A DNA stretch of 64,000 nucleotides from Escherichia coli (GTDB lineage: Bacteria; Pseudomonadota; Gammaproteobacteria; Enterobacterales; Enterobacteriaceae): NCBI RefSeq assembly GCF_041886205.1, contig NZ_CP169029.1, one strand, 5' to 3'. The notes beneath the pieces were generated by a model. The model ran no database searches, had not been told where the DNA came from, and worked only from the letters and a program-made list of their open reading frames with translations. A program made the position numbers and the translations under genes. Shown here one piece after another: positions 2,135 through 27,475 of this stretch; position 1 is the first letter of the stretch; every line of letters begins with the position of its first letter.

Positions 2135-3028
2135 ATGACGAATTTAAAAGCAGTTATACCGGTAGCAGGTCTTGGGATGCATATGTTGCCTGCCACTAAG
2201 GCGATTCCCAAAGAGATGCTACCGATCGTCGACAAGCCAATGATTCAGTACATTGTTGACGAGATTGTGGCTGCAGGGATCAAAGAAATCCTCCTGGTAA
2301 CTCACGCGTCCAAGAACGCAGTCGAAAACCACTTCGACACCTCTTATGAATTAGAATCTCTCCTTGAACAGCGCGTGAAGCGTCAACTACTGGCGGAAGT
2401 ACAATCTATCTGTCCGCCGGGCGTGACCATTATGAACGTGCGTCAGGGTGAACCTTTAGGTTTAGGCCACTCCATTTTATGTGCGCGACCTGCCATTGGT
2501 GACAATCCATTTGTCGTGGTGCTGCCAGACGTTGTGATCGACGACGCCAGCGCCGACCCGTTGCGTTACAACCTTGCTGCCATGATTGCGCGCTTCAATG
2601 AAACGGGCCGTAGCCAGGTGCTGGCAAAACGTATGCCGGGTGACCTCTCTGAATACTCCGTCATCCAGACCAAAGAACCGCTGGATCGTGAAGGTAAAGT
2701 CAGCCGCATTGTTGAATTTATCGAAAAACCGGATCAGCCGCAGACGCTGGACTCAGACATAATGGCCGTTGGTCGCTATGTGCTTTCTGCCGATATTTGG
2801 CCGGAACTTGAACGCACTCAGCCTGGTGCATGGGGACGTATTCAGCTGACTGATGCCATTGCTGAACTGGCGAAAAAACAGTCCGTTGATGCCATGCTGA
2901 TGACAGGTGACAGCTACGACTGCGGTAAAAAAATGGGTTATATGCAGGCGTTTGTGAAGTATGGACTACGCAACTTGAAAGAAGGGGCGAAGTTCCGCAA
3001 AGGTATCGAGAAGCTGTTAAGCGAATAA
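2135..3028 (+). CDS. galF: UTP-glucose-1-phosphate uridylyltransferase paralog GalF
   Basis: 297 aa; conserved GalU/GalF N-terminus ([34 protein letters not shown]); conserved position upstream of the O-antigen cluster. Confidence 0.9.
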
Positions 3029-3257
3029 TGAAAATCTGACCGAATGTAACGGTTGATAAGGAAATAATAACGGCAGTGAAAAACTATAGATCAATAAATA
3101 TCACTGCTGTTGAGCGTTTATAATTAACTATGCTACCAATGAATAAATAGTGTGCAGATATGTATTTTTTGTTTGGTAGTCTTGTTTCTCCCTCTGAATA
3201 ATAAGATAATAAACGCTTGGAGATGATTTTTTTAACATGGATTATCATTTCGTACAC

Positions 3258-3296
3258 TGGTAGCGATTAAGCCAGGGGCGGTAGCGTGCATAAATT
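3258..3296 (+). promoter_or_regulatory. JUMPstart element with ops site (GGCGGTAGCGTG at about 3277-3288) for RfaH-dependent antitermination
   Basis: ops consensus read directly in the galF-wbdN intergenic region, preceded by the tggtagcg direct repeat typical of JUMPstart. Confidence 0.8.
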
Positions 3297-3346
3297 TTAA
3301 TGCTTATCAAAACTATTAGCATTAAAAATATATAAGAAATTCTCAA

Positions 3347-4129
3347 ATGAACAAAGAAACCGTTTCAATAATTATGCCCGTTTACAATGGGGCCAAAACT
3401 ATAATCTCATCAGTAGAATCAATTATACATCAATCTTATCAAGATTTTGTTTTGTATATCATTGACGATTGTAGCACCGATGATACATTTTCATTAATCA
3501 ACAGTCGATACAAAAACAATCAGAAAATAAGAATATTGCGTAACAAGACAAATTTAGGTGTTGCAGAAAGTCGAAATTATGGAATAGAAATGGCCACGGG
3601 GAAATATATTTCTTTTTGTGATGCGGATGATTTGTGGCACGAGAAAAAATTAGAGCGTCAAATCGAAGTGTTAAATAATGAATGTGTAGATGTGGTATGT
3701 TCTAATTATTATGTTATAGATAACAAAAGAAATATTGTTGGCGAAGTTAATGCTCCTCATGTGATAAATTATAGAAAAATGCTCATGAAAAACTACATAG
3801 GGAATTTGACAGGAATCTATAATGCCAACAAATTGGGTAAGTTTTATCAAAAAAAGATTGGTCACGAGGATTATTTGATGTGGCTGGAAATAATTAATAA
3901 AACAAATGGTGCTATTTGTATTCAAGATAATCTGGCGTATTACATGCGTTCAAATAATTCACTATCGGGTAATAAAATTAAAGCTGCAAAATGGACATGG
4001 AGTATATATAGAGAACATTTATATTTGTCCTTTCCAAAAACATTATATTATTTTTTATTATATGCTTCAAATGGAGTCATGAAAAAAATAACACATTCAC
4101 TATTAAGGAGAAAGGAGACTAAAAAGTGA
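3347..4129 (+). CDS. wbdN: family-2 glycosyltransferase (O157 O-unit assembly)
   Basis: 260 aa; GT2 N-terminal motif (VSIIMPVYNG ... IIDDCSTD ... DADD); first gene after JUMPstart; AT-rich. Confidence 0.75.
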   Translation: MNKETVSIIMPVYNGAKTIISSVESIIHQSYQDFVLYIIDDCSTDDTFSLINSRYKNNQKIRILRNKTNLGVAESRNYGIEMATGKYISFCDADDLWHEKKLERQIEVLNNECVDVVCSNYYVIDNKRNIVGEVNAPHVINYRKMLMKNYIGNLTGIYNANKLGKFYQKKIGHEDYLMWLEIINKTNGAICIQDNLAYYMRSNNSLSGNKIKAAKWTWSIYREHLYLSFPKTLYYFLLYASNGVMKKITHSLLRRKETKK

Positions 4130-5310
4130 AGTCAGCGGCTAAGTTGATTTTTTTATTCCTATTTACACTTTATAGTCTCCAGTTGTATGGGGTTATCATA
4201 GATGATCGTATAACAAATTTTGATACAAAGGTATTAACTAGTATTATAATTATATTTCAGATTTTTTTTGTTTTATTATTTTATCTAACGATTATAAATG
4301 AAAGAAAACAGCAGAAAAAATTTATCGTGAACTGGGAGCTAAAGTTAATACTCGTTTTCCTTTTTGTGACTATAGAAATTGCTGCTGTAGTTTTATTTCT
4401 TAAAGAAGGTATTCCTATATTTGATGATGATCCAGGGGGGGCTAAACTTAGAATAGCTGAAGGTAATGGACTTTACATTAGATATATTAAGTATTTTGGT
4501 AATATAGTTGTGTTTGCATTAATTATTCTTTATGATGAGCATAAATTCAAACAGAGGACCATCATATTTGTATATTTTACAACGATTGCTTTATTTGGTT
4601 ATCGTTCTGAATTGGTGTTGCTCATTCTTCAATATATATTGATTACCAATATCCTGTCAAAGGATAACCGTAATCCTAAAATAAAAAGAATAATAGGGTA
4701 TTTTTTATTGGTAGGGGTTGTATGCTCGTTGTTTTATCTAAGTTTAGGACAAGACGGAGAACAAAATGACTCATATAATAATATGTTAAGGATAATTAAT
4801 AGGTTAACAATAGAGCAAGTTGAAAGTGTTCCATATGTTGTTTCTGAATCTATTAAGAACGATTTCTTTCCGACACCAGAGTTAGAAAAGGAATTAAAAG
4901 CAATAATAAATAGAATACAGGGAATAAAGCATCAAGACTTATTTTATGGAGAACGGTTACATAAACAAGTATTTGGAGACATGGGAGCAAATTTTTTATC
5001 AGTTACTACGTATGGAGCAGAACTATTAGTTTTTTTTGGTTTTCTCTGTGTATTCATTATCCCTTTAGGGATATATATACCTTTTTATCTTTTAAAGAGA
5101 ATGAAAAAAACCCATAGCTCGATAAACTGCGCATTCTATTCATATATCATTATGATTTTATTGCAATACTTAGTGGCTGGGAATGCATCGGCCTTCTTTT
5201 TTGGTCCTTTTCTCTCCGTATTGATAATGTGTACTCCTCTGATCTTATTGCATGATACGTTAAAGAGATTATCACAAAATGAAAATATCAGTTATAACTG
5301 TGACTTATAA
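4126..5310 (+). CDS. wzy: O-antigen polymerase Wzy
   Basis: 394 aa, highly hydrophobic multi-spanning membrane protein, very AT-rich, position matches O157 cluster order. Confidence 0.75.
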   Translation: MKSAAKLIFLFLFTLYSLQLYGVIIDDRITNFDTKVLTSIIIIFQIFFVLLFYLTIINERKQQKKFIVNWELKLILVFLFVTIEIAAVVLFLKEGIPIFDDDPGGAKLRIAEGNGLYIRYIKYFGNIVVFALIILYDEHKFKQRTIIFVYFTTIALFGYRSELVLLILQYILITNILSKDNRNPKIKRIIGYFLLVGVVCSLFYLSLGQDGEQNDSYNNMLRIINRLTIEQVESVPYVVSESIKNDFFPTPELEKELKAIINRIQGIKHQDLFYGERLHKQVFGDMGANFLSVTTYGAELLVFFGFLCVFIIPLGIYIPFYLLKRMKKTHSSINCAFYSYIIMILLQYLVAGNASAFFFGPFLSVLIMCTPLILLHDTLKRLSQNENISYNCDL

Positions 5311-6025
5311 TAATGCTGAAGGGTTAGAAAAAACTTTAAGTAGTTTATCAATTTTAAAAATAAAACCTTTTGAGATTATTATAGTTGATGGCGGCTCTAC
5401 AGATGGAACGAATCGTGTCATTAGTAGATTTACTAGTATGAATATTACACATGTTTATGAAAAAGATGAAGGGATATATGATGCGATGAATAAGGGTCGA
5501 ATGTTGGCCAAAGGCGACTTAATACATTATTTAAACGCCGGCGATAGCGTAATTGGAGATATATATAAAAATATCAAAGAGCCATGTTTGATTAAAGTTG
5601 GCCTTTTCGAAAATGATAAACTTCTGGGATTTTCTTCTATAACCCATTCAAATACAGGGTATTGTCATCAAGGGGTGATTTTCCCAAAGAATCATTCAGA
5701 ATATGATCTAAGGTATAAAATATGTGCTGATTATAAGCTTATTCAAGAGGTGTTTCCTGAAGGGTTAAGATCTCTATCTTTGATTACTTCGGGTTATGTA
5801 AAATATGATATGGGGGGAGTATCTTCAAAAAAAAGAATTTTAAGAGATAAAGAGCTTGCCAAAATTATGTTTGAAAAAAACAAAAAAAACCTTATTAAGT
5901 TTATTCCAATTTCAATAATCAAAATTTTATTCCCTGAACGTTTAAGAAGAGTATTGCGGAAAATGCAATATATTTGTCTAACTTTATTCTTCATGAAGAA
6001 TAGTTCACCATATGATAATGAATAA
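5279..6025 (+). CDS. wbdO: family-2 glycosyltransferase
   Basis: 248 aa; GT2 motifs (ISVITVTYNN ... IIIVDGGSTDGT ... DAMNKG); position in O157 order. Confidence 0.75.
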   Translation: MKISVITVTYNNAEGLEKTLSSLSILKIKPFEIIIVDGGSTDGTNRVISRFTSMNITHVYEKDEGIYDAMNKGRMLAKGDLIHYLNAGDSVIGDIYKNIKEPCLIKVGLFENDKLLGFSSITHSNTGYCHQGVIFPKNHSEYDLRYKICADYKLIQEVFPEGLRSLSLITSGYVKYDMGGVSSKKRILRDKELAKIMFEKNKKNLIKFIPISIIKILFPERLRRVLRKMQYICLTLFFMKNSSPYDNE

Positions 6026-7403
6026 AATCAAAAAAATACTTAAATTTTGCACTTTAAAAAAATATGATACATCAAGTGCTTTAGGTAGAGAACAGGAAAG
6101 GTACAGGATTATATCCTTGTCTGTTATTTCAAGTTTGATTAGTAAAATACTCTCACTACTTTCTCTTATATTAACTGTAAGTTTAACTTTACCTTATTTA
6201 GGACAAGAGAGATTTGGTGTATGGATGACTATTACCAGTCTTGGTGCTGCTCTGACATTTTTGGACTTAGGTATAGGAAATGCATTAACAAACAGGATCG
6301 CACATTCATTTGCGTGTGGCAAAAATTTAAAGATGAGTCGGCAAATTAGTGGTGGGCTCACTTTGCTGGCTGGATTATCGTTTGTCATAACTGCAATATG
6401 CTATATTACTTCTGGCATGATTGATTGGCAACTAGTAATAAAAGGTATAAACGAGAATGTGTATGCAGAGTTACAACACTCAATTAAAGTCTTTGTAATC
6501 ATATTTGGACTTGGAATTTATTCAAATGGTGTGCAAAAAGTTTATATGGGAATACAAAAAGCCTATATAAGTAATATTGTTAATGCCATATTTATATTGT
6601 TATCTATTATTACTCTAGTAATATCGTCGAAACTACATGCGGGACTACCAGTTTTAATTGTCAGCACTCTTGGTATTCAATACATATCGGGAATCTATTT
6701 AACAATTAATCTTATTATAAAGCGATTAATAAAGTTTACAAAAGTTAACATACATGCTAAAAGAGAAGCTCCATATTTGATATTAAATGGTTTTTTCTTT
6801 TTTATTTTACAGTTAGGCACTCTGGCAACATGGAGTGGTGATAACTTTATAATATCTATAACATTGGGTGTTACTTATGTTGCTGTTTTTAGCATTACAC
6901 AGAGATTATTTCAAATATCTACGGTCCCTCTTACGATTTATAACATCCCGTTATGGGCTGCTTATGCAGATGCTCATGCACGCAATGATACTCAATTTAT
7001 AAAAAAGACGCTCAGAACATCATTGAAAATAGTGGGTATTTTATCATTCTTATTGGCCTTCATATTAGTAGTGTTCGGTAGTGAAGTCGTTAATATTTGG
7101 ACAGAAGGAAAGATTCAGGTACCTCGAACATTCATAATAGCTTATGCTTTATGGTCTGTTATTGATGCTTTTTCGAATACATTTGCAAGCTTTTTAAATG
7201 GTTTGAACATAGTTAAACAACAAATGCTTGCTGTTGTAACATTGATATTGATCGCAATTCCAGCAAAATACATCATAGTTAGCCATTTTGGGTTAACTGT
7301 TATGTTGTACTGCTTCATTTTTATATATATTGTAAATTACTTTATATGGTATAAATGTAGTTTTAAAAAACATATCGATAGACAGTTAAATATAAGAGGA
7401 TGA
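6012..7403 (+). CDS. wzx: O-antigen flippase Wzx
   Basis: 463 aa polytopic membrane protein with about 12 predicted TM segments; AT-rich; position in O157 order. Confidence 0.75.
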   Translation: MIMNKIKKILKFCTLKKYDTSSALGREQERYRIISLSVISSLISKILSLLSLILTVSLTLPYLGQERFGVWMTITSLGAALTFLDLGIGNALTNRIAHSFACGKNLKMSRQISGGLTLLAGLSFVITAICYITSGMIDWQLVIKGINENVYAELQHSIKVFVIIFGLGIYSNGVQKVYMGIQKAYISNIVNAIFILLSIITLVISSKLHAGLPVLIVSTLGIQYISGIYLTINLIIKRLIKFTKVNIHAKREAPYLILNGFFFFILQLGTLATWSGDNFIISITLGVTYVAVFSITQRLFQISTVPLTIYNIPLWAAYADAHARNDTQFIKKTLRTSLKIVGILSFLLAFILVVFGSEVVNIWTEGKIQVPRTFIIAYALWSVIDAFSNTFASFLNGLNIVKQQMLAVVTLILIAIPAKYIIVSHFGLTVMLYCFIFIYIVNYFIWYKCSFKKHIDRQLNIRG

Positions 7404-7405
7404 AA

Positions 7406-8500
7406 ATGAAATATATACCAGTTTACCAACCGTCATTGACAGGAAAAGAAAAAGAATATGTAAATGAATGTCTGGACTCAACGTGGATTTCATCAAAAGG
7501 AAACTATATTCAGAAGTTTGAAAATAAATTTGCGGAACAAAACCATGTGCAATATGCAACTACTGTAAGTAATGGAACGGTTGCTCTTCATTTAGCTTTG
7601 TTAGCGTTAGGTATATCGGAAGGAGATGAAGTTATTGTTCCAACACTGACATATATAGCATCAGTTAATGCTATAAAATACACAGGAGCCACCCCCATTT
7701 TCGTTGATTCAGATAATGAAACTTGGCAAATGTCTGTTAGTGACATAGAACAAAAAATCACTAATAAAACTAAAGCTATTATGTGTGTCCATTTATACGG
7801 ACATCCATGTGATATGGAACAAATTGTAGAACTGGCCAAAAGTAGAAATTTGTTTGTAATTGAAGATTGCGCTGAAGCCTTTGGTTCTAAATATAAAGGT
7901 AAATATGTGGGAACATTTGGAGATATTTCTACTTTTAGCTTTTTTGGAAATAAAACTATTACTACAGGTGAAGGTGGAATGGTTGTCACGAATGACAAAA
8001 CACTTTATGACCGTTGTTTACATTTTAAAGGCCAAGGATTAGCTGTACATAGGCAATATTGGCATGACGTTATAGGCTACAATTATAGGATGACAAATAT
8101 CTGCGCTGCTATAGGATTAGCCCAGTTAGAACAAGCTGATGATTTTATATCACGAAAACGTGAAATTGCTGATATTTATAAAAAAAATATCAACAGTCTT
8201 GTACAAGTCCACAAGGAAAGTAAAGATGTTTTTCACACTTATTGGATGGTCTCAATTCTAACTAGGACCGCAGAGGAAAGAGAGGAATTAAGGAATCACC
8301 TTGCAGATAAACTCATCGAAACAAGGCCAGTTTTTTACCCTGTCCACACGATGCCAATGTACTCGGAAAAATATCAAAAGCACCCTATAGCTGAGGATCT
8401 TGGTTGGCGTGGAATTAATCTACCTAGTTTCCCCAGCCTATCGAATGAGCAAGTTATTTATATTTGTGAATCTATTAACGAATTTTATAGTGATAAATAG
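7406..8500 (+). CDS. per: GDP-perosamine synthase (GDP-4-keto-6-deoxymannose 4-aminotransferase, DegT/AHBA family)
   Basis: Pyridoxal-phosphate aminotransferase of the DegT family (TTVSNGTVALHLAL ... FSFFGNKTITTGEGG); 364 aa from the MKYIPVYQP start; hallmark of the O157 perosamine pathway. Confidence 0.8.
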   Translation: MKYIPVYQPSLTGKEKEYVNECLDSTWISSKGNYIQKFENKFAEQNHVQYATTVSNGTVALHLALLALGISEGDEVIVPTLTYIASVNAIKYTGATPIFVDSDNETWQMSVSDIEQKITNKTKAIMCVHLYGHPCDMEQIVELAKSRNLFVIEDCAEAFGSKYKGKYVGTFGDISTFSFFGNKTITTGEGGMVVTNDKTLYDRCLHFKGQGLAVHRQYWHDVIGYNYRMTNICAAIGLAQLEQADDFISRKREIADIYKKNINSLVQVHKESKDVFHTYWMVSILTRTAEEREELRNHLADKLIETRPVFYPVHTMPMYSEKYQKHPIAEDLGWRGINLPSFPSLSNEQVIYICESINEFYSDK

Positions 8501-8524
8501 CCTAAAATATTGTAAAGGTCATTC

Positions 8525-9739
8525 ATGAAAATTGCGTTGAATTCAGATGGATTTTACGAGTGGGGCGGTGGAATTGATTTTATTAAATATATTCTGTCAA
8601 TATTAGAAACGAAACCAGAAATATGTATCGATATTCTTTTACCGAGAAATGATATACATTCTCTTATAAGAGAAAAAGCATTTCCTTTTAAAAGTATATT
8701 AAAAGCAATTTTAAAGAGGGAAAGGCCTCGATGGATTTCATTAAATAGATTTAATGAGCAATACTATAGAGATGCCTTTACACAAAATAATATAGAGACG
8801 AATCTTACCTTTATTAAAAGTAAGAGCTCTGCCTTTTATTCATATTTTGATAGTAGCGATTGTGATGTTATTCTTCCTTGCATGCGTGTTCCTTCGGGAA
8901 ATTTGAATAAAAAAGCATGGATTGGTTATATTTATGACTTTCAACACTGTTACTATCCTTCATTTTTTAGTAAGCGAGAAATAGATCAAAGGAATGTGTT
9001 TTTTAAATTGATGCTCAATTGCGCTAACAATATTATTGTTAATGCACATTCAGTTATTACCGATGCAAATAAATATGTTGGGAATTATTCTGCAAAACTA
9101 CATTCTCTTCCATTTAGTCCATGCCCTCAATTAAAATGGTTTGCTGATTACTCTGGTAATATTGCCAAATATAATATTGACAAGGATTATTTTATAATTT
9201 GCAATCAATTTTGGAAACATAAAGATCATGCAACTGCTTTTAGGGCATTTAAAATTTATACTGAATATAATCCTGATGTTTATTTAGTATGCACGGGAGC
9301 TACTCAAGATTATCGATTCCCTGGATATTTTAATGAATTGATGGTTTTGGCAAAAAAGCTCGGAATTGAATCGAAAATTAAGATATTAGGGCATATACCT
9401 AAACTTGAACAAATTGAATTAATCAAAAATTGCATTGCTGTAATACAACCAACCTTATTTGAAGGCGGGCCTGGAGGGGGGGTAACATTTGACGCTATTG
9501 CATTAGGGAAAAAAGTTATACTATCTGACATAGATGTCAATAAAGAAGTTAATTGCGGTGATGTATATTTCTTTCAGGCAAAAAACCATTATTCATTAAA
9601 TGACGCGATGGTAAAAGCTGATGAATCTAAAATTTTTTATGAACCTACAACTCTGATAGAATTGGGTCTCAAAAGACGCAATGCGTGTGCAGATTTTCTT
9701 TTAGATGTTGTGAAACAAGAAATTGAATCCCGATCTTAA
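8525..9739 (+). CDS. wbdP: family-1 (GT4-like) glycosyltransferase
   Basis: 404 aa; C-terminal EGGPGG-type motif of retaining glycosyltransferases; position in O157 order. Confidence 0.7.
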
Positions 9740-9758
9740 TATATTCAAGAGGTATATA

Positions 9759-10877
9759 ATGACTAAAGTCGCTCTTATTACAGGTGTAACTGGACAAGAT
9801 GGATCTTATCTAGCTGAGTTTTTGCTTGATAAAGGGTATGAAGTTCATGGTATCAAACGCCGAGCCTCATCTTTTAATACAGAACGCATAGACCATATTT
9901 ATCAAGATCCACATGGTTCTAACCCAAATTTTCACTTGCACTATGGAGATCTGACTGATTCATCTAACCTCACTAGAATTCTAAAGGAGGTACAGCCAGA
10001 TGAAGTATATAATTTAGCTGCTATGAGTCACGTAGCAGTTTCTTTTGAGTCTCCAGAATATACAGCCGATGTCGATGCAATTGGTACATTACGTTTACTG
10101 GAAGCAATTCGCTTTTTAGGATTGGAAAACAAAACGCGTTTCTATCAAGCTTCAACCTCAGAATTATATGGACTTGTTCAGGAAATCCCTCAAAAAGAAT
10201 CCACCCCTTTTTATCCTCGTTCCCCTTATGCAGTTGCAAAACTTTACGCATATTGGATCACGGTAAATTATCGAGAGTCATATGGTATTTATGCATGTAA
10301 TGGTATATTGTTCAATCATGAATCTCCACGCCGTGGAGAAACGTTTGTAACAAGGAAAATTACTCGAGGACTTGCAAATATTGCACAAGGCTTGGAATCA
10401 TGTTTGTATTTAGGGAATATGGATTCGTTACGAGATTGGGGACATGCAAAAGATTATGTTAGAATGCAATGGTTGATGTTACAACAGGAGCAACCCGAAG
10501 ATTTTGTGATTGCAACAGGAGTCCAATACTCAGTCCGTCAGTTTGTCGAAATGGCAGCAGCACAACTTGGTATTAAGATGAGCTTTGTTGGTAAAGGAAT
10601 CGAAGAAAAAGGCATTGTAGATTCGGTTGAAGGACAGGATGCTCCAGGTGTGAAACCAGGTGATGTCATTGTTGCTGTTGATCCTCGTTATTTCCGACCA
10701 GCTGAAGTTGATACTTTGCTTGGAGATCCGAGCAAAGCTAATCTCAAACTTGGTTGGAGACCAGAAATTACTCTTGCTGAAATGATTTCTGAAATGGTTG
10801 CCAAAGATCTTGAAGCCGCTAAAAAACATTCTCTTTTAAAATCGCATGGTTTTTCTGTAAGCTTAGCTCTGGAATGA
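9759..10877 (+). CDS. gmd: GDP-mannose 4,6-dehydratase
   Basis: 372 aa from [35 protein letters not shown], the canonical Gmd N-terminus. Confidence 0.95.
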
Positions 10878-10879
10878 TG

Positions 10880-11845
10880 ATGAATAAGCAACGTATTTTT
10901 ATTGCTGGTCACCAAGGAATGGTTGGATCAGCTATTACCCGACGCCTCAAACAACGTGATGATGTTGAGTTGGTTTTGCGTACTCGGGATGAATTGAACT
11001 TGTTGGATAGTAGCGCTGTTTTGGATTTTTTTTCTTCACAGAAAATCGACCAGGTTTATTTGGCAGCAGCAAAAGTCGGAGGTATTTTAGCTAACAGTTC
11101 TTATCCTGCCGATTTTATATATGAGAATATAATGATAGAGGCGAATGTCATTCATGCTGCCCACAAAAATAATGTAAATAAACTGCTTTTCCTCGGTTCG
11201 TCGTGTATTTATCCTAAGTTAGCACACCAACCGATTATGGAAGACGAATTATTACAAGGGAAACTTGAGCCAACAAATGAACCTTATGCTATCGCAAAAA
11301 TTGCAGGTATTAAATTATGTGAATCTTATAACCGTCAGTTTGGGCGTGATTACCGTTCAGTAATGCCAACCAATCTTTATGGTCCAAATGACAATTTTCA
11401 TCCAAGTAATTCTCATGTGATTCCGGCGCTTTTGCGCCGCTTTCATGATGCTGTGGAAAACAATTCTCCGAATGTTGTTGTTTGGGGAAGTGGTACTCCA
11501 AAGCGTGAATTCTTACATGTAGATGATATGGCTTCTGCAAGCATTTATGTCATGGAGATGCCATACGATATATGGCAAAAAAATACTAAAGTAATGTTGT
11601 CTCATATCAATATTGGAACAGGTATTGACTGCACGATTTGTGAGCTTGCGGAAACAATAGCAAAAGTTGTAGGTTATAAAGGGCATATTACGTTCGATAC
11701 AACAAAGCCCGATGGAGCCCCTCGAAAACTACTTGATGTAACGCTTCTTCATCAACTAGGTTGGAATCATAAAATTACCCTTCACAAGGGTCTTGAAAAT
11801 ACATACAACTGGTTTCTTGAAAACCAACTTCAATATCGGGGGTAA
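10880..11845 (+). CDS. fcl: GDP-L-fucose synthase family (GDP-4-keto-6-deoxymannose 3,5-epimerase/4-reductase); in the O157 pathway this step feeds perosamine/fucose branch
   Basis: 321 aa; conserved Fcl N-terminus ([16 protein letters not shown]) and short-chain dehydrogenase fold. Confidence 0.9.
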
Positions 11846-11847
11846 TA

Positions 11848-12357
11848 ATGTTTTTACATTCCCAAGACTTTGCCACAATTGTAAGGTCTACTCCTCTTAT
11901 TTCTATAGATTTGATTGTGGAAAACGAGTTTGGCGAAATTTTGCTAGGAAAACGAATCAACCGCCCGGCACAGGGCTATTGGTTCGTTCCTGGTGGTAGG
12001 GTGTTGAAAGATGAAAAATTGCAGACAGCCTTTGAACGATTGACAGAAATCGAACTAGGAATTCGTTTGCCTCTCTCTGTGGGTAAGTTTTATGGTATCT
12101 GGCAGCACTTCTACGAAGACAATAGTATGGGGGGAGACTTTTCAACGCATTATATAGTTATAGCATTCCTTCTTAAATTACAACCAAACATTTTGAAATT
12201 ACCGAAGTCACAACATAATGCTTATTGCTGGCTATCGCGAGCAAAGCTGATAAATGATGACGATGTGCATTATAATTGTCGCGCATATTTTAACAATAAA
12301 ACAAATGATGCGATTGGCTTAGATAATAAGGATATAATATGTCTGATGCGCCAATAA
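11848..12357 (+). CDS. gmm: GDP-mannose mannosyl hydrolase (Nudix)
   Basis: 169 aa; Nudix-like core ([29 protein letters not shown]); follows fcl as in GDP-sugar operons. Confidence 0.85.
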
Positions 12358-13787
12358 TTGCTGTAGTTATGGCCGGTGGTACAGGCAGTCGTCTTTGGCC
12401 ACTTTCTCGTGAACTATATCCAAAGCAGTTTTTACAACTCTCTGGTGATAACACCTTGTTACAAACGACTTTGCTACGACTTTCAGGCCTATCATGTCAA
12501 AAACCATTAGTGATAACAAATGAACAGCATCGCTTTGTTGTGGCTGAACAGTTAAGGGAAATAAATAAATTAAATGGTAATATTATTCTAGAACCATGCG
12601 GGCGAAATACTGCACCAGCAATAGCGATATCTGCGTTTCATGCGTTAAAACGTAATCCTCAGGAAGATCCATTGCTTCTAGTTCTTGCGGCAGACCACGT
12701 TATAGCTAAAGAAAGTGTTTTCTGTGATGCTATTAAAAATGCAACTCCCATCGCTAATCAAGGTAAAATTGTAACGTTTGGAATTATACCAGAATATGCT
12801 GAAACTGGTTATGGGTATATTGAGAGAGGTGAACTATCTGTACCGCTTCAAGGGCATGAAAATACTGGTTTTTATTATGTAAATAAGTTTGTTGAAAAGC
12901 CTAATCGTGAAACCGCAGAATTGTATGTGACTTCTGGTAATCACTATTGGAATAGTGGAATATTCATGTTTAAGGCATCTGTTTATCTTGAGGAATTGAG
13001 AAAATTTAGACCTGACATTTACAATGTTTGTGAACAGGTTGCCTCATCCTCATACATTGATCTAGATTTTATTCGATTATCAAAAGAACAATTTCAAGAT
13101 TGTCCTGCTGAATCTATTGATTTTGCTGTAATGGAAAAAACAGAAAAATGTGTTGTATGCCCTGTTGATATTGGTTGGAGTGACGTTGGATCTTGGCAAT
13201 CGTTATGGGACATTAGTCTAAAATCGAAAACAGGAGATGTATGTAAAGGTGATATATTAACCTATGATACTAAGAATAATTATATCTACTCTGAGTCAGC
13301 GTTGGTAGCCGCCATTGGAATTGAAGATATGGTTATCGTGCAAACTAAAGATGCCGTTCTTGTGTCTAAAAAGAGTGATGTACAGCATGTAAAAAAAATA
13401 GTCGAAATGCTTAAATTGCAGCAACGTACAGAGTATATTAGTCATCGTGAAGTTTTCCGACCATGGGGAAAATTTGATTCGATTGACCAAGGTGAGCGAT
13501 ACAAAGTCAAGAAAATTATTGTGAAACCTGGTGAGGGGCTTTCTTTAAGGATGCATCACCATCGTTCTGAACATTGGATCGTGCTTTCTGGTACAGCAAA
13601 AGTAACCCTTGGCGATAAAACTAAACTAGTCACCGCAAATGAATCGATATACATTCCCCTTGGCGCAGCGTATAGTCTTGAGAATCCGGGCATAATCCCT
13701 CTTAATCTTATTGAAGTCAGTTCAGGGGATTATTTGGGAGAGGATGATATTATAAGACAGAAAGAACGTTACAAACATGAAGATTAA
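12339..13787 (+). CDS. manC: mannose-1-phosphate guanylyltransferase / mannose-6-phosphate isomerase (bifunctional)
   Basis: 482 aa; N-terminal nucleotidyltransferase motif ([22 protein letters not shown]) and C-terminal cupin domain. Confidence 0.95.
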
Positions 13788-13790
13788 CAT

Positions 13791-15161
13791 ATGAAATCTT
13801 TAACCTGCTTTAAAGCCTATGATATTCGCGGGAAATTAGGCGAAGAACTGAATGAAGATATTGCCTGGCGCATTGGGCGTGCCTATGGCGAATTTCTCAA
13901 ACCGAAAACCATTGTTTTAGGCGGTGATGTCCGCCTCACCAGCGAAACCTTAAAACTGGCGCTGGCGAAAGGTTTACAGGATGCGGGCGTCGATGTGCTG
14001 GATATCGGTATGTCCGGCACCGAAGAGATCTATTTCGCCACGTTCCATCTCGGCGTGGATGGCGGCATTGAAGTTACCGCCAGCCATAATCCGATGGATT
14101 ATAACGGCATGAAACTGGTGCGCGAAGGGGCTCGCCCAATCAGCGGTGATACCGGACTGCGCGACGTCCAGCGTCTGGCAGAAGCCAACGACTTTCCTCC
14201 CGTCGATGAAACCAAACGCGGTCGCTATCAGCAAATCAACCTGCGTGACGCTTACGTTGATCACCTGTTCGGTTATATCAATGTCAAAAACCTCACGCCG
14301 CTCAAGCTGGTGATTAACTCCGGGAATGGCGCAGCGGGTCCGGTGGTGGACGCCATTGAAGCCCGCTTTAAAACCCTCGGCGCGCCCGTGGAATTGATCA
14401 AAGTGCACAACACGCCCGACGGCAATTTCCCCAACGGTATTCCTAATCCGCTGCTGCCTGAATGCCGCGACGACACCCGCAATGCGGTCATCAAACACGG
14501 CGCGGATATGGGCATTGCCTTTGATGGCGATTTTGACCGCTGTTTTCTGTTTGACGAAAAAGGGCAGTTTATCGAGGGCTACTACATTGTCGGCCTGCTG
14601 GCAGAAGCGTTCCTCGAAAAAAATCCCGGCGCGAAGATCATCCACGATCCGCGTCTCTCCTGGAACACCGTTGATGTGGTGACTGCCGCAGGCGGCACCC
14701 CGGTAATGTCGAAAACCGGACACGCCTTTATTAAAGAACGTATGCGCAAGGAAGACGCCATCTACGGTGGCGAAATGAGCGCCCACCATTACTTCCGTGA
14801 TTTCGCTTACTGCGACAGCGGCATGATCCCGTGGCTGCTGGTCGCCGAACTGGTGTGCCTGAAAGGAAAAACGCTGGGCGAACTGGTGCGCGACCGGATG
14901 GCTGCGTTTCCGGCAAGCGGTGAGATCAACAGCAAACTGGCGCAACCCGTTGAGGCGATTAATCGCGTCGAACAGCATTTTAGCCGTGAGGCGCTGGCGG
15001 TGGATCGTACCGATGGCATCAGCATGACCTTTGCCGACTGGCGCTTTAACCTGCGCTCTTCCAACACCGAACCGGTGGTGCGGTTGAATGTGGAATCACG
15101 CGGTGATGTAAAGCTAATGGAAAAGAAAACTAAAGCTCTTCTTAAATTGCTAAGTGAGTGA
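13791..15161 (+). CDS. manB: phosphomannomutase
   Basis: 456 aa; phosphohexomutase active-site motif ([13 protein letters not shown]); notably higher GC than neighbouring cluster genes. Confidence 0.95.
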
Positions 15162-15499
15162 TTATTTACATTAATCATTAAGCGTATTTAAGATTATATT
15201 AAAGTAATGTTATTGCGGTATATGATGAATATGTGGGCTTTTTTATGTATAACAACTATACCGCAACTTTATCTAGGAAAAGATTAATAGAAATAAAGTT
15301 TTGTACTGACCAATTTGCATTTCACGTCACGATTGAGACGTTCCTTTGCTTAAGACATTTTTTCATCGCTTATGTAATAACAAATGTGCCTTATATAAAA
15401 AGGAGAACAAAATGGAACTTAAAATAATTGAGACAATAGATTTTTATTATCCCTGTTTACGATATTATAGCCAAAGTTGTATCCTGCATCAGTCCTGCA

Positions 15500-16300
15500 A
15501 TATTTCACGAGTGCTTTGTTAACTGAATACATGTCTGCCATTTTCCAGATGATAACGACGTCATCACAATTGATGGTAAAACACTTCGGCACACTTATGA
15601 CAAGAGTCGTCGCAGAGGAGTGGTTCATGTCATTAGTGTGTTTCAGCAATGCACAGTCTGGTCCTCGGATAGATCAAGACGGATGAGAAACCTAATGCGT
15701 TCACAGTTATTCATGAACTTTCTAAAATGATGGGTATTAAAGGAAAAATAATCATAACTGATGCGATGGCTTGCCAGAAAGATATTGCAGAGAAGATATA
15801 AAAACAGAGATGTGATTATTTATTCGCTGTAAAAGGAAATAAGAGTCGGCTTAATAGAGTCTTTGAGGAGATATTTACGCTGAAAGAATTAAATAATCCA
15901 AAACATAACAGTTACGCAATTAGTGAAAAGAGGCACGGCAGAGACGATGTCCGTCTTCATATTGTTTGAGATGCTCCTGATGAGCTTATTGATTTCACGT
16001 TTGAATGGAAAGGGCTGCAGAATTTATGAATGGCAGTCCACTTTCTCTCAATAATAGCAGAGCAAAAGAAAGAATCCGAAATGACGATCAAATATTATAT
16101 TAGATCTGCTGCTTTAACCGCAGAGAAGTTCGCCACAGTAAATCGAAATCACTGGCGCATGGAGAATAAGTTGCACAGTAGCCTGATGTGGTAATGAATG
16201 AAATCGACTATAATATAAGAAGGCGAGTTGCATTCGAATGATTTTCTAGAATGCGGCACATCGCTACTAATATCTGACAATGATAATGTATTCAAGGCAG
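15500..16300 (+). pseudogene. decayed H-repeat/ISAs1-family transposase remnant (multiple stops and frameshifts)
   Basis: Translation shows ISAs1/H-repeat transposase blocks ([25 protein letters not shown] ... [12 protein letters not shown] ... YLFAVKGN ... [19 protein letters not shown] ... DELIDFTFEWKGL) broken over three frames; sits between manB and wbdR. Confidence 0.75.
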
Positions 16301-16423
16301 GATTATCATGTAAGATGCGAAAAGCAGTCATGGACAGAAACTTCCTAGCGTCAGGCATTGCAGCGTGCGGGCTTTCATAATCTTGCATTGGTTTTGATAA
16401 GATATTTCTTTGGAGATGGGAAA

Positions 16424-17089
16424 ATGAATTTGTATGGTATTTTTGGTGCTGGAAGTTATGGTAGAGAAACAATACCCATTCTAAATCAACAAATAAAGCA
16501 AGAATGTGGTTCTGACTATGCTCTGGTTTTTGTGGATGATGTTTTGGCAGGAAAGAAAGTTAATGGTTTTGAAGTGCTTTCAACCAACTGCTTTCTAAAA
16601 GCCCCTTATTTAAAAAAGTATTTTAATGTTGCTATTGCTAATGATAAGATACGACAGAGAGTGTCTGAGTCAATATTATTACACGGGGTTGAACCAATAA
16701 CTATAAAACATCCAAATAGCGTTGTTTATGATCATACTATGATAGGTAGTGGCGCTATTATTTCTCCCTTTGTTACAATATCTACTAATACTCATATAGG
16801 GAGGTTTTTTCATGCAAACATATACTCATACGTTGCACATGATTGTCAAATAGGAGACTATGTTACATTTGCTCCTGGGGCTAAATGTAATGGATATGTT
16901 GTTATTGAAGACAATGCATATATAGGCTCGGGTGCAGTAATTAAGCAGGGTGTTCCTAATCGCCCACTTATTATTGGCGCGGGAGCCATTATAGGTATGG
17001 GGGCTGTTGTCACTAAAAGTGTTCCTGCCGGTATAACTGTGTGCGGAAATCCAGCAAGAGAAATGAAAAGATCGCCAACATCTATTTAA
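16424..17089 (+). CDS. wbdR: perosamine N-acetyltransferase (left-handed beta-helix/hexapeptide acyltransferase)
   Basis: 221 aa from MNLYGIFGAGSYGRE; hexapeptide-repeat C-terminus (IGSGAVIKQGV ... IGAGAIIGMGAVV); last gene of the O157 cluster. Confidence 0.8.
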   Translation: MNLYGIFGAGSYGRETIPILNQQIKQECGSDYALVFVDDVLAGKKVNGFEVLSTNCFLKAPYLKKYFNVAIANDKIRQRVSESILLHGVEPITIKHPNSVVYDHTMIGSGAIISPFVTISTNTHIGRFFHANIYSYVAHDCQIGDYVTFAPGAKCNGYVVIEDNAYIGSGAVIKQGVPNRPLIIGAGAIIGMGAVVTKSVPAGITVCGNPAREMKRSPTSI

Positions 17090-17289
17090 AGGGAATGCGG
17101 AAACACGTTCCAAATGGGACTAATGTTTAAAATATATATAATTTCGCTAATTTACTAAATTATGGCTTCTTTTTAAGCTATCCTTTACTTAGTTATTACT
17201 GATACAGCATGAAATTTATAATACTCTGATACATTTTTATACGTTATTCAAGCCGCATATCTAGCGGTAACCCCTGACAGGAGTAAACA

Positions 17290-18696
17290 ATGTCAAAGCA
17301 ACAGATCGGCGTAGTCGGTATGGCAGTGATGGGGCGCAACCTAGCGCTCAACATCGAAAGCCGTGGTTATACCGTCTCTATTTTCAACCGCTCCCGTGAG
17401 AAGACGGAAGAAGTGATTGCCGAAAATCCAGGCAAGAAACTGGTTCCTTACTATACGGTGAAAGAGTTTGTTGAATCTCTGGAAACGCCTCGTCGCATCC
17501 TGTTAATGGTGAAAGCAGGTGCAGGCACGGATGCTGCTATTGATTCCCTCAAGCCGTACCTCGATAAAGGTGACATCATCATTGATGGTGGTAACACCTT
17601 CTTCCAGGACACCATTCGTCGTAACCGTGAGCTTTCTGCCGAAGGCTTTAACTTCATCGGTACCGGTGTTTCCGGCGGAGAAGAAGGCGCGCTGAAAGGT
17701 CCTTCCATTATGCCTGGTGGGCAGAAAGAAGCCTATGAACTGGTTGCGCCGATCCTGACCAAAATCGCCGCAGTGGCTGAAGACGGTGAGCCATGCGTTA
17801 CCTATATTGGTGCCGATGGCGCAGGTCACTATGTGAAGATGGTTCACAACGGTATTGAATACGGAGATATGCAACTGATTGCTGAAGCCTATTCTCTGCT
17901 TAAAGGTGGCCTGAACCTCACCAACGAAGAACTGGCGCAGACGTTTACCGAGTGGAATAACGGTGAACTGAGCAGCTACCTGATCGACATCACCAAAGAT
18001 ATCTTCACCAAAAAAGATGAAGACGGTAACTACCTGGTTGATGTGATCCTGGATGAAGCGGCTAACAAAGGTACCGGTAAATGGACCAGCCAGAGCGCAC
18101 TGGATCTCGGCGAACCGCTGTCGCTGATTACCGAGTCTGTGTTTGCACGTTATATCTCTTCTCTGAAAGATCAGCGTGTTGCCGCATCTAAAGTTCTCTC
18201 TGGCCCGCAAGCACAGCCAGCAGGCGACAAGGCTGAGTTCATCGAAAAAGTTCGCCGTGCGCTGTATCTGGGCAAAATCGTTTCTTACGCCCAGGGCTTC
18301 TCTCAGCTGCGTGCTGCGTCTGAAGAGTACAACTGGGATCTGAACTACGGCGAAATCGCGAAGATTTTCCGTGCTGGCTGCATCATTCGTGCGCAGTTCC
18401 TGCAGAAAATTACCGATGCTTATGCCGAAAATCCGCAGATCGCTAACCTGCTGCTGGCTCCGTACTTCAAGCAAATTGCCGATGATTACCAGCAGGCGCT
18501 GCGTGATGTCGTTGCTTATGCGGTACAGAACGGTATCCCGGTTCCGACCTTCGCCGCTGCGGTTGCCTATTACGATAGCTACCGTGCCGCTGTTCTGCCT
18601 GCGAACCTGATCCAGGCACAGCGTGACTATTTCGGTGCACATACTTATAAGCGCATTGATAAAGAAGGTGTGTTCCATACTGAATGGCTGGATTAA
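17290..18696 (+). CDS. gnd: 6-phosphogluconate dehydrogenase (decarboxylating)
   Basis: 468 aa; canonical N-terminus [30 protein letters not shown]. Confidence 0.98.
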
Positions 18697-18723
18697 TCTG
18701 ATTTAACCAACAGTAAAATTGAG

Positions 18724-18754
18724 GCCCGGCGTATATTGCACCGGGCTTTTTTTT
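18724..18754 (+). terminator. rho-independent terminator after gnd
   Basis: GC hairpin gcccgg...ccgggc followed by a run of 8 T. Confidence 0.6.
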
Positions 18755-18935
18755 GCCATTTATCTTATAGACTAAATTTCACTGCTTAATATTAACTTAA
18801 TAAATATCAGCTATTCTTATAAAGAAAATCTGAATTGTTTTTCGTAGCGTTGACCAGCTAATAACGTAGCGTTAAAACATTTAGCTCTTATCAGGATGCT
18901 AAAAACATCATGATTCACAGTTAAGTTAATTCTGA

Positions 18936-20111
<1,176 letters not shown>

Positions 20112-20257
20112 CATCTTGTTATCAGGGCGATTTTCGCCCTGATTGTCTGATGTTCCCTTTGTAATAATTCATTATTTTTATCATTTATCCTATAGCATTC
20201 ATGGCGATTATCGCTAAACTATGGCGACTTAAAATTATTTCGTCCGTTAGGGTAATG

Positions 20258-21235
20258 ATGAGAGTAGAAAATAATAATGTTTCTGGGCAAAACCATGACC
20301 CGGAACAGATTGATTTGATTGATTTACTGGTGCAGTTGTGGCGTGGCAAGATGACAATTATCATCTCTGTCATTGTGGCTATTGCCCTGGCTATAGGGTA
20401 TCTGGCCGTTGCCAAAGAAAAGTGGACTTCCACAGCTATCGTTACTCAACCTGATGTGGGGCAAATCGCTGGTTATAACAATGCCATAAATGTGATTTAT
20501 GGTTCGGCAGCGCCGAAAGTGTCTGAGATCCAGTCGATGTTAATTGGTCGTTTCAGCACGACATTTTCTGCATTAGCGGAAACGCTGGATAATCAGGAAG
20601 AACCTGAAAAACTGACCATTGAGCCTACCGTTAAAAATCAGTCCTTACCTTTAGCGGTTTCTTATGTTGGTGAAACAGCTGAAGGTGCGCAGAAACAGCT
20701 GGCGAAGTATATCCAGCAAGTTGACGACCAGGTAAATGAAGAACTGGAACAAGACCTGAAAGACAACATCGCGCTGCAAATGAAAAACTTGCAGGATTCT
20801 CTGAAGACGCAGGAAGTGGTTGCGCAGGAGCAGAAAGATCTGCGTATCCGTCAGATTCAGGAAGCGTTGCAGTATGCGAATCAGGCGCAGGTGACAAAGC
20901 CGCAGATTCAGCAGACACAGGACGTAACCCAGGATACTATGTTCCTTTTGGGGAGCGAAGCGCTGGAGTCGATGATTAAGCACGAGGCGACTCGTCCGTT
21001 GGTGTTCTCATCAAACTACTATCAGACTCGTCAAAACCTGCTGGATATCGACAATCTTGACGTTGATAAACTTGATATTCATGCTTACCGCTATGTAATG
21101 AAACCGACGTTACCTATTCGTCGCGATAGCCCGAAAAAGGCAATTACCTTGATTCTGGCGGTGCTGCTGGGCGGCATGGTTGGCGCGGGGATTGTGTTGG
21201 GGCGTAACGCTCTGCGTAATTACAACGCGAAGTAA
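20258..21235 (+). CDS. wzzB: O-antigen chain-length determinant (polysaccharide co-polymerase) Wzz
   Basis: About 325 aa from MRVENNNVSGQNHDPEQIDLIDLL; two TM segments flanking a coiled-coil periplasmic domain; C-terminal GGMVGAGIVLGRNALRNY. Confidence 0.95.
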   Translation: MRVENNNVSGQNHDPEQIDLIDLLVQLWRGKMTIIISVIVAIALAIGYLAVAKEKWTSTAIVTQPDVGQIAGYNNAINVIYGSAAPKVSEIQSMLIGRFSTTFSALAETLDNQEEPEKLTIEPTVKNQSLPLAVSYVGETAEGAQKQLAKYIQQVDDQVNEELEQDLKDNIALQMKNLQDSLKTQEVVAQEQKDLRIRQIQEALQYANQAQVTKPQIQQTQDVTQDTMFLLGSEALESMIKHEATRPLVFSSNYYQTRQNLLDIDNLDVDKLDIHAYRYVMKPTLPIRRDSPKKAITLILAVLLGGMVGAGIVLGRNALRNYNAK

Positions 21236-21253
21236 TCTTTGCAGCTTTAAAGA

Positions 21254-21290
21254 AAACGGGCAGGGTGGTGACACCTTGCCCGTTTTTTTT
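21254..21290 (+). terminator. rho-independent terminator after wzz
   Basis: Hairpin aacgggcagggtg...caccttgcccgtt followed by a run of 8 T; a second hairpin (ggatgcga...tcgcatcc) follows at about 21293-21318. Confidence 0.6.
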
Positions 21291-21331
21291 GCCGGATGCG
21301 ACAACAACATCGCATCCGCTTACCCCGCAAC

Positions 21332-21943: not shown

Positions 21944-22278
21944 ATCCTGATCTCCACGCCCTGTGTTGCCAGGTACGCTTTTAATTCACCAATATTGATT
22001 ATTTGTTTGTGGAATACGGAAGCTGCCAGCGCGCCGTCAACGTCGGCATCACGGAAGGCTTCGAGGAAGTGTTCCATGGTGCCCGCGCCACCGGAGGCAA
22101 TTAGCGGGACGTGGCAAACTTCACGCACTTTTTTCAGTTGTTCGAGGTCGTAACCGTTACGCACGCCGTCCTGATTCATCATGTTGAGGACGATTTCTCC
22201 GGCACCGCGTTTTTGCACTTCCTGTACCCAGTCGAGCGTTTCCCACTGAGTGACGCGGGTGCGGCTTTCATCGCCCAC
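21937..22278 (-). pseudogene. hisF: hisF, 3' portion only (C-terminal about 113 codons); 5' part replaced by foreign DNA
   Basis: Translation matches the HisF C-terminus ([38 protein letters not shown] ... [17 protein letters not shown]); an in-frame stop lies just upstream of the homology and no HisF N-terminal sequence is present. Confidence 0.85.
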
Positions 22279-22279
22279 A

Positions 22280-27475
<5,196 letters not shown>

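Follow-up and report, generated by a model that had tools for sequence, protein, structure and literature searches.

The O-antigen gene cluster of E. coli O157:H7 EDL933/Sakai was reportedly described by Wang & Reeves in 1998 (Infect Immun 66:3545), and Salmonella enterica O30 (group N) is said, after Samuel et al. in 2004, to encode the same O antigen. The EDL933/Sakai cluster carries the same genes as the locus analyzed here, from wbdN to wbdR, and also an ISAs1 pseudogene between manB and perB. Homologous recombination between manB and cpsG is already reported in a passage of Iguchi 2011 (PMC3158064), citing Samuel 2004, and a deletion in the O14 cluster arose by manB x cpsG recombination (PMC7685785). 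In Salmonella group D2, a proposed cause of the rearrangement is the H-repeat remnant at the junction of the D1 and E modules (PMC3715488). Literature searches for H-repeat or ISAs1 together with O157 or perosamine brought up no more specific description.

The window, that is, the whole stretch of 64,000 nucleotides of Escherichia coli DNA that was analyzed (contig NZ_CP169029.1 of RefSeq assembly GCF_041886205.1), begins within wcaM, and its positions 1-22275 are an E. coli O157-type O-antigen locus whose gene order is colinear with EDL933. The O157 gene set was present in the O157 order (wbdN-wzy-wbdO-wzx-per-wbdP-gmd-fcl-wbdQ-manC-manB-(H-repeat)-wbdR) between galF and gnd. Outside manB, the cluster is 99-100% identical to those of EDL933 and of an O157:H16 strain, the latter being the closer relative of the window (98.8% overall and 100% through gnd), while EDL933 differs from it by 38 sites in the converted part of manB and is 95-97% identical from gnd onwards. 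The near-identity with EDL933 stops in the wbdR-gnd spacer (17090-17289, 32% GC), so that the shared O157 stretch has its right-hand limit there. The gnd gene (17290-18696, plus strand, 51% GC; the housekeeping flank, encoding 6-phosphogluconate dehydrogenase, with Pfam domains 6PGD and NAD_binding_2) is 95-98% identical to EDL933 and 100% to O157:H16. Upstream of wbdN, on the plus strand, lies a JUMPstart element (3251-3288; RF01707, 39.9 bits with a gathering score of 35, the sole family found in an Rfam scan of 2900-19000) with the ops motif GGCGGTAGCGT at 3277-3287, which has one match in the whole window. The element marks the one start of the operon, and transcription of all the cluster genes, wbdR among them, presumably begins there. 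Taken as a whole, this region is already known, being the ordinary 3' end of an O157-type O-antigen operon. Its mosaic character has, with a probability that we put at about 85%, its origin in two unrelated processes, the conversion of manB by cpsG and the arrival of an ISEc1-like element that is now decayed.

The GC content of the cluster genes is 30-35% from wbdN to wbdP and 38-39% from gmd to manC, and it rises to about 55% in manB. The original prediction of a conspicuously GC-rich manB amid AT-rich upstream genes was thus borne out, and composition is not uniform along the cluster. manB (13791-15161, plus strand) encodes a phosphomannomutase with the four PGM_PMM Pfam domains (I-IV) that falls into the CpsG subfamily (NCBIfam NF011943, 'phosphomannomutase CpsG', 1050.6 bits with the cut-off at 801), and the gene is chimeric: positions 13791-15108 have 54.9% GC and a GC3 of 62.9%, and the cpsG-derived tract (13800-15109, plus strand, 54.9% GC) has both of its breakpoints inside the manB ORF, the 5' one in the interval 13799-13877 and the 3' one in 15059-15110. 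Nine native bases precede the tract, which starts after codon 3, and a native AT-rich tail of 52 nt follows it (15110-15161, plus strand, 30% GC); this tail departs from cpsG at 20 of its 52 positions and is invariant in three O157 clusters. Within the tract, every 100-nt window is 95-99% identical to the colanic-acid cpsG of EDL933. The adjacent manC (12339-13787, plus strand; GDP-mannose pyrophosphorylase / mannose-6-phosphate isomerase, with Pfam NTP_transferase and MannoseP_isomer) serves as an unconverted control, as it is native and AT-rich (37.6% GC) and its 100-nt windows are only 51-67% identical to the colanic-acid cpsB, against 98-100% to the O157 manC of EDL933. Because the cpsG-like segment is internal and flanked by native sequence, and manC is unaffected, we regard the tract as a product of homologous gene conversion by the colanic-acid paralogue cpsG and not of IS-mediated capture.

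According to this reading, cpsG, the colanic-acid phosphomannomutase paralogue, would have replaced the original AT-rich manB sequence from codon 4 up to a point 52 nt short of the stop, and the normal E. coli composition of this donor would explain both the jump in GC and an open antisense frame in manB. The window does not include the cpsG of its own genome; three other genomes, together with base composition and the native sequence left at either end of manB, are what we infer the donor allele and the direction of conversion from. EDL933 and O157:H16 both have cpsG some 20 kb upstream. At 95-97% identity, bases 1-1332 of the query match cpsG in almost every one of 5,426 E. coli genomes, cpsG-like matches being present in 5,424, and the sequences flanking the IS and wbdR are confined to 307 of the 5,426, all of them O157-type. 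Among the manB alleles of three O157 clusters, 37-39 sites differ in the tract and none in the tail. No other gene of the O157 cluster is as variable as manB, which is the sole divergent island (95-99%) in an otherwise 99-100% conserved cluster; at seven sites, the O157:H16 manB shares a base only with the cpsG of the same strain. Exchange from cpsG to manB probably recurs, which would explain why the manB alleles of O157 lineages are about 3% apart while the rest of the cluster is near-identical. The window is a further instance of the exchange already described (PMC3158064, PMC7685785), from which it shows no difference, with the same paralogue pair and an identity above 95%.

The 334-codon antisense ORF at 13974-14978 on the minus strand does exist, as had been noted earlier, and is an artefact of codon bias, not a gene. 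Between 13977 and 15095, manB has no sense TTA, CTA or TCA codons, which are the antisense stops in the codon-aligned frame, and for this reason the antisense frame stays open; the same effect is seen in cpsG and in gnd (a 391-aa antisense ORF at 17503-18678). Neither this ORF nor the antisense ORF at 16149-16472 matched any Pfam family, and both were rejected as genes, the first also on account of the codon-aligned frame.

Downstream of the manB stop, an AT-rich spacer of 111 bp (15162-15272, about 25% GC), found only in the 307 O157-type genomes, leads to the left end of a dead ISAs1-family (H-repeat, ISEc1-like) IS of 1,119 bp (15273-16391, plus strand). A decayed transposase of this kind had been predicted at about 15500-16300; it is real, and the element is longer than was thought. 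It aligns end-to-end and colinearly with the intact ISEc1 of 1,293 bp, with an identity of 83.3% over 1,117 aligned bases and of 71% at the amino acid level, and its frameshift-corrected translation scores 235.6 bits (cut-off 70) against NCBIfam NF033564, the ISAs1 family. Both inverted repeats are recognizable, the left one as CTAGGAAAAGAT at 15273-15284 and the right one at 16380-16391 (reverse complement CCAATGCAAGAT; the ISEc1 counterpart is CCAGGG(A/C)AAGAT), and each is mutated at 2 of 12 positions. The transposase reading frame, with its ATG at 15413, has a 165-bp deletion at 15451/15452 that removes codons 14-68 of the N-terminal domain, four frameshifts (+1 at 15425, -1 after 15642, -1 after 16184 and -2 after 16275) and seven stops in the reference frame. 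In EDL933, RefSeq annotates the equivalent of window positions 15449-16380 as 'ISAs1 family transposase; frameshifted; internal stop; incomplete', and in O157:H16 the remnant is annotated as a pseudogene too.

ISEc1 and ISEc5, the E. coli H-repeats that include yhhI and ydcC, share with the remnant the terminal core CCAGGG.AAGAT and a single transposase ORF; in contrast to them, the remnant is dead, with a deletion, frameshifts, stops, mutated repeats and no 8-bp duplication, and we consider it a relic without a functional transposase ORF and not an active ISAs1 member. The closest intact transposases are those of the E. coli/Shigella ISEc1 type (71-72% at the amino acid level), those of Salmonella reaching 62-63%, and no intact relative closer than E. 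coli ISEc1 (about 83% at the nucleotide level) was found among plasmids or in a set of 5.8 billion proteins. An intact ISEc1 copy in strain CUWW11 is flanked by the 8-bp target duplication TCAGTTGA. No such duplication was found at the nominal ends of the remnant, where 1 of 8 positions matches, and the best match in any register, 5 of 8, was reached by 1,683 of 2,000 shuffles and is at chance level. Matches to ISEc1-type elements (at least 80% query coverage) occur in 4,909 E. coli genomes; per genome, the median number of matching places is 5. The element is an ISEc1-like H-repeat that lies between manB and wbdR with both ends present and has since decayed beyond function, and it is fixed in all the O157-type clusters that were examined.

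At its right end, the IS adjoins the translation start region of wbdR. A plus-strand spacer of 32 bp (16392-16423), in which the ribosome-binding site GGAG could be read directly, separates it from the ATG at 16424, the true start of wbdR, the TTG at 16358 being the start of a mechanical ORF. The acetyltransferase gene expected after the H-repeat is wbdR, or perB (16424-17089, plus strand, 221 aa, 36.8% GC): its product is 100% identical to a protein named GDP-perosamine N-acetyltransferase [Escherichia coli], RefSeq places perB at the same position, and the protein has the Pfam domains Hexapep and PglD_N and scores 171.2 bits (cut-off 160.8) against TIGR03570 (NeuD/PglB/VioB). WbdR/PerB is thus predicted to carry out the acetyl-CoA-dependent N-acetylation of GDP-perosamine, an activity that Albermann & Beuttler in 2008 are said to have reported for the O157:H7 enzyme. 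Distant PerB-like proteins (from Kerstersia, Buttiauxella and a 2.3-kb Logan contig) belong to other sugar acetyltransferase contexts and were uninformative.

In Salmonella O30, the genes from wzx/per through manB are colinear with those of E. coli O157 at about 74% nucleotide identity, with a wbdR orthologue at 71-72%. As in E. coli, the O30 manB is GC-rich and has an AT-rich native tail at the same position and of recognizably similar sequence; in O30, gmd, fcl and wbdQ are converted as well (56-61% GC together with manB, against 39% for manC). The two species differ in the position of wbdR, which lies before gnd in E. coli O157 and beyond gnd in O30; to our knowledge, this contrast has already been described. 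Homology between their wbdR regions is limited to the ORF, the flanks being unrelated. Downstream of the O30 wbdR there is an IS5 fragment, conserved in Salmonella subspecies I and II, and some strains also have an IS3 or IS110 element; no ISAs1 remnant was found in the O30 loci by blastn or tblastn. wbdR itself (70.6% nucleotide identity between the species) is about as diverged as the cluster core (wbdP 70.6%, manC 76.2%), which makes it an old member of the cluster and not a recent addition. Since its positions differ, wbdR was relocated in one of the two lineages, most likely, as we infer this step, by a transposable element. The proposal that wbdR was acquired through the IS therefore loses its recent-addition form, and IS-mediated relocation is plausible, if unproven.

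There are two ways in which wbdR and the H-repeat may have come together. In the first, both entered the cluster, or changed place inside it, through a single IS-mediated event in the Escherichia lineage that placed wbdR between manB and gnd; a cointegrate resolved by homologous recombination and recombination between two H-repeat copies are candidate mechanisms. The lack of a target-site duplication, the short distance from the IS end to the wbdR ATG, the O30 wbdR lying beyond gnd beside a different IS fragment, the restriction of homology to the ORF and the similarity of the remnant to an E. coli element all favor this explanation, as does the precedent of group D2 (PMC3715488), where the remnant occupies a comparable position. 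In D2, however, both parental clusters are known and the junction can be demonstrated, whereas no parental arrangement is known for O157, and a search with both the IS and wbdR flanks found no empty site or donor arrangement among 5,426 complete E. coli genomes. The core-like divergence of wbdR also speaks against a newcomer, and the duplication may be missing because of decay or small terminal deletions. We hold a single event only tentatively, at somewhat less than even odds.

In the second, the H-repeat was a bystander that entered an existing manB-wbdR spacer by simple transposition and then decayed, and the difference from O30 arose in the Salmonella lineage, for instance through the IS5 element or through a replacement of gnd, a known recombination hot spot. 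This explanation is consistent with the presence of both IS ends in colinearity with ISEc1, with the abundance of ISEc1-type elements in E. coli and with the conserved IS5 fragment beside wbdR in both Salmonella subspecies. The target-site duplication is its weak point: decay could have erased it, yet an insertion followed by about 17% decay predicts some 5-6 matches out of 8, more than the single one seen. An independent insertion of this kind is possible, at the same odds as the single event.

Furthermore, we considered whether the dead IS was co-opted as a cis-acting element (an internal promoter, attenuator, RNA element or spacer) that sets wbdR expression apart from the RfaH-dependent operon, which, if true, would explain the persistence of the remnant in every O157-type cluster. 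The remnant is at least 99% identical in 305 of the 307 O157-type genomes, and one promoter-like site at 15700-15728 matches at 10 of 12 positions. However, its conservation is that of the whole cluster (99-100%), promoter-like sites between 15000 and 17400 are at chance level (11 against 10.0±3.1 expected), the Rfam scan matched no family within the remnant, and its substitutions over all three codon positions, together with the stops and frameshifts, point to neutral decay, which makes co-option very improbable. wbdR would be transcribed by read-through from the promoter region of the JUMPstart/ops element across the 1.26-kb spacer, against which stand terminator-like hairpins about 2 sd above chance between 15000 and 17400 (4 against 1.4±1.3 expected). 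Lastly, the acquisition of manB through the IS, which the original prediction proposed from the adjacent remnant and the sharp GC jump and which would have involved a GC-rich donor, is effectively refuted, because the GC-rich tract begins inside the ORF, is 95-98% identical to the resident paralogue cpsG and ends 163 bp short of the IS, with the AT-rich tail and spacer in between, and because the O30 manB is likewise converted without any H-repeat. The broader idea of a cluster assembled by recombination stands insofar as its 3' end is a recombinational mosaic, but not in the part that brings in manB through the IS.

The importance of these results beyond correct annotation is small. In an annotation of this locus, the H-repeat pseudogene should span 15273-16391, and neither the antisense ORF of 334 codons nor the TTG-started wbdR ORF of 243 codons should be included. 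Additionally, manB tracks the host cpsG, which makes it ill suited as a marker in O157 typing or phylogeny. The contrast in wbdR and gnd positions with Salmonella O30 is the only part of some evolutionary interest. Otherwise, the region is a textbook case of O-antigen cluster evolution, with low-GC serotype-specific genes and IS debris at module junctions, and it illustrates how a nucleotide-sugar pathway gene is repeatedly homogenized against its colanic-acid paralogue.

The mosaic at the 3' end of the O-antigen cluster (window 13791-17089) is, with high confidence, the product of two independent processes: manB underwent recurrent homologous conversion by its colanic-acid paralogue cpsG, and an ISEc1-like element, since decayed, either inserted between manB and wbdR or mediated a rearrangement there. 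Everything found agrees with published O157 cluster descriptions and with the RefSeq annotation, and is not novel; Wang and Reeves reportedly noted an H-repeat remnant between manB and wbdR in 1998.

Positions 1-24000 of the window were compared by megablast with all complete E. coli genomes, 305 of which covered at least 80% of the query. This identified positions 1-22275 as an O157-type O-antigen locus, with identities of 98.8% (an O157:H16 strain) and 98.1% (O157:H7 EDL933). Window positions equal EDL933 locus coordinates minus 3000 and the annotation transfers one-to-one, which gives the order wcaM, gne, galF, wbdN, wzy, wbdO, wzx, rfbE/per, wbdP, gmd, fcl, wbdQ, manC, manB, ISAs1 pseudogene, perB (wbdR), gnd, ugd, wzz and hisIE, with a JUMPstart/ops element (3251-3288) immediately upstream of wbdN. 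In the RefSeq annotation of EDL933, manB is labelled 'cpsG' and the 'ISAs1 family transposase' pseudogene between manB and perB is flagged as frameshifted, incomplete and carrying an internal stop.

Near-identity to EDL933 stops at the wbdR-gnd spacer, with 95-97% from gnd onwards (17250-21300), and the O157:H16 strain is ~100% identical to the window until roughly 19250; the lowest identity in 17250-21300 is found in the wzz region (20250-20750, 75-89%). These steps would fit separate recombination boundaries in different O157 lineages. The O157 H-repeat remnant (99.6%) and perB (98.9%) were also found at 136239-138239 of NZ_CP114132.1 (438,722 bp, E. coli NJS001, pig), filed in PLSDB as a plasmid and probably a misfiled chromosomal fragment. 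Beyond the locus, a stretch of the his operon (2,428 bp, minus strand) has given way to ~2,375 bp of foreign-looking DNA (22276-24650): hisA and hisH are missing entirely, hisF for the most part and hisB in part. Even sensitive blastn matched this segment to no complete E. coli genome, and it has no ORF above ~125 aa; it contains (CA)n and (TG)n runs (22646-22668, 22812-22878, 23838-23860), is strongly depleted in CpG (92 CG versus 219 in an equal length of his DNA) and enriched in TG, and looks non-bacterial or artificial.

The original prediction described manB as GC-rich beside AT-rich upstream genes, and the gene-by-gene values bear this out: GC is 54.9% in manB (13791-15108; GC3 62.9%) versus 30-35% across wbdN to wbdP and 38-39% across gmd to manC. 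GC is 30% in the last 53 bases of manB, 25% in the spacer, 37.4% in the IS remnant, 36.8% in wbdR and 51% in gnd. The predicted 334-codon antisense ORF (13974..14978) is also present; we rejected it as a gene, as it has no Pfam family and sits in the codon-aligned antisense frame, in which a stop can arise only opposite a sense TTA, CTA or TCA codon. These codons are absent from manB between 13977 and 15095 and number 26 in AT-rich manC; gnd likewise has 3, with a 397-codon open antisense run, and the same frame is also open in cpsG.

Window 12339-15400 was aligned in 100-nt windows to the EDL933 O157 cluster and to the EDL933 colanic-acid cpsB-cpsG region. manC was 98-100% identical to O157 manC and 51-67% to colanic-acid cpsB; identity switches just past the manB start, and 13800 to ~15109 is 95-99% identical to cpsG. 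Neither the first 9 bases of manB (ATGAAATCT vs ATGAAAAAA) nor its AT-rich last 52, 20 of which differ from cpsG, are cpsG-like, so the GC-rich tract lies strictly inside the ORF; it stops 163 bp short of the IS. Furthermore, 5,424 of 5,426 E. coli genomes have a cpsG that matches bases 1-1,332 of the region at 95-97%, the flanks being restricted to the 307 O157-type genomes. Among the window, EDL933 and O157:H16 clusters there are 37-39 differences in the manB tract, comparable to the 32-52 sites separating each from cpsG alleles, and none in the tail; at seven sites the O157:H16 manB has a base found otherwise only in the cpsG of its own strain. A sliding comparison along the cluster showed 99-100% identity except in manB, the sole island of 95-99%. 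These alignments indicate that manB is a gene-conversion chimera and not an IS-borne acquisition. The original prediction was thus half right: a mosaic made by recombination stands, and entry of manB through the IS is rejected by the internal, cpsG-like tract ending before the element. The pattern is the one published by Iguchi et al. 2011 (PMC3158064), who ascribe manB diversity to intragenomic gene conversion and, citing Samuel et al. 2004, state that the colanic-acid gene replaced the original O157 manB. It is also accepted that the two manB paralogues recombined to cause the O14 cluster deletion (PMC7685785).

Sensitive blastn of 15162-16423 gave ISEc1/ISEc5-type H-repeat matches in thousands of genomes (~82-83% identity), spanning 15275-16386 in two pieces versus ~1,286 bp in intact elements. 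Alignment to ISEc5 of K-12 and to the ISEc1 copy interrupting tssA in strain CUWW11 (1,293 bp, bordered by the 8-bp duplication TCAGTTGA) placed the element at 15273-16391 (1,119 bp) with both ends kept; its inverted repeats are CTAGGAAAAGAT (IRL) and CCAATGCAAGAT (IRR, reverse complement), where ISEc1 has CCAGGG(A/C)AAGAT. The decayed transposase expected downstream of manB is therefore real, with 83.3% nucleotide identity to ISEc1 and a corrected translation 71% identical to its transposase that scores 235.6 bits against the ISAs1 family model (cut-off 70). Relative to ISEc1, a 165-bp deletion at 15451/15452 takes out codons 14-68 (N-terminal domain), and the ORF has four frameshifting indels and is interrupted by seven reference-frame stops; substitutions amount to 13%, 12% and 20% at the three codon positions, and of the codon changes 89 are non-synonymous and 31 are synonymous. 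Since the closest intact transposases in a 5.8-billion-protein set are of the E. coli/Shigella ISEc1 type (71-72%; Salmonella ones 62-63%) and a plasmid search found no relative closer than that type, the element is taken to be an ancient, defunct H-repeat of Escherichia type. Its identity is at least 99% in all but two of the 307 O157-type genomes (305), a conservation not above that of the surrounding cluster.

The acetyltransferase gene predicted after the remnant is wbdR (16424-17089, plus strand), whose start is ATG 16424 and not TTG 16358; the 22-codon extension (16358-16423, plus strand) should not be annotated, as Salmonella homology begins at 16420-16422, nor should a TTG-started minus-strand ORF (16149-16472, 107 aa) that overlaps both the right end of the IS and the start of wbdR and has no Pfam match. 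WbdR is 100% identical to an E. coli protein named GDP-perosamine N-acetyltransferase. Its expression would likely come by read-through from the JUMPstart/ops region with RfaH antitermination, an established mechanism for such operons. The closest relatives outside E. coli are Salmonella enterica acetyltransferases (72%), from serovars including 'salamae serovar 30:g,m,s:e,n,x', Urbana, Ago and Nijmegen. The six Salmonella loci considered show the order per-wbdP-gmd-fcl-wbdQ-manC-manB-gnd-wbdR-(gap)-ugd-wzz-his, so that wbdR lies downstream of gnd in Salmonella O30, whereas it lies upstream in E. coli O157. Homology is limited to the wbdR ORF (16420-17055), its flanks being non-homologous. Between the two, wbdR shares 70.6% of its nucleotides and 71% of its amino acids, a divergence like that of the unconverted core genes (wbdP 70.6%/67%, manC 76%/81%, per 77%/84%), and therefore we infer that it is an original cluster member, not a recent addition, and that its position is what changed. 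Many Salmonella assemblies break at the wbdR 5' end, which yields 'partial' proteins.

Whether the H-repeat relocated wbdR or is a bystander insertion carries about equal weight. Relocation would accord with the different position of wbdR in Salmonella, where no ISAs1 remnant was found in the loci (blastn and tblastn) and a different relic, an IS5-family transposase fragment conserved in subspecies I and II, lies directly 3' of wbdR, accompanied in some strains by an IS3- or IS110-family element (6646-6975 and 7333-8249 in locus L006, 7128-8144 in L007, 10859-11170 in L014). In addition, the IS ends 32 bp from the wbdR start, no target-site duplication was detected (the nominal ends match at 1 of 8 positions, and no register does better than chance), and an H-repeat at the junction of the Salmonella D2 cluster offers a precedent (PMC3715488). 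However, both IS ends are kept, as expected of a simple insertion, E. coli carries H-repeats in abundance, and no empty site or donor arrangement was found among the 5,426 genomes. Co-option of the dead IS as a regulatory element is unsupported, given promoter-like sites at chance level, no Rfam hit and a neutral substitution pattern.

Lastly, Salmonella O30 manB likewise has a high GC content (61%) and keeps a native tail rich in AT, and gmd, fcl and wbdQ reach 56-61% GC with manC between them at 39% (GC-rich segments 1-1159 and 2604-3974 in L006, 2775-5364 and 6809-8179 in L014). This pattern implies several separate putative conversion tracts from the colanic-acid cluster; conversion by colanic-acid paralogues therefore arose independently in both species, and no H-repeat is needed for it.
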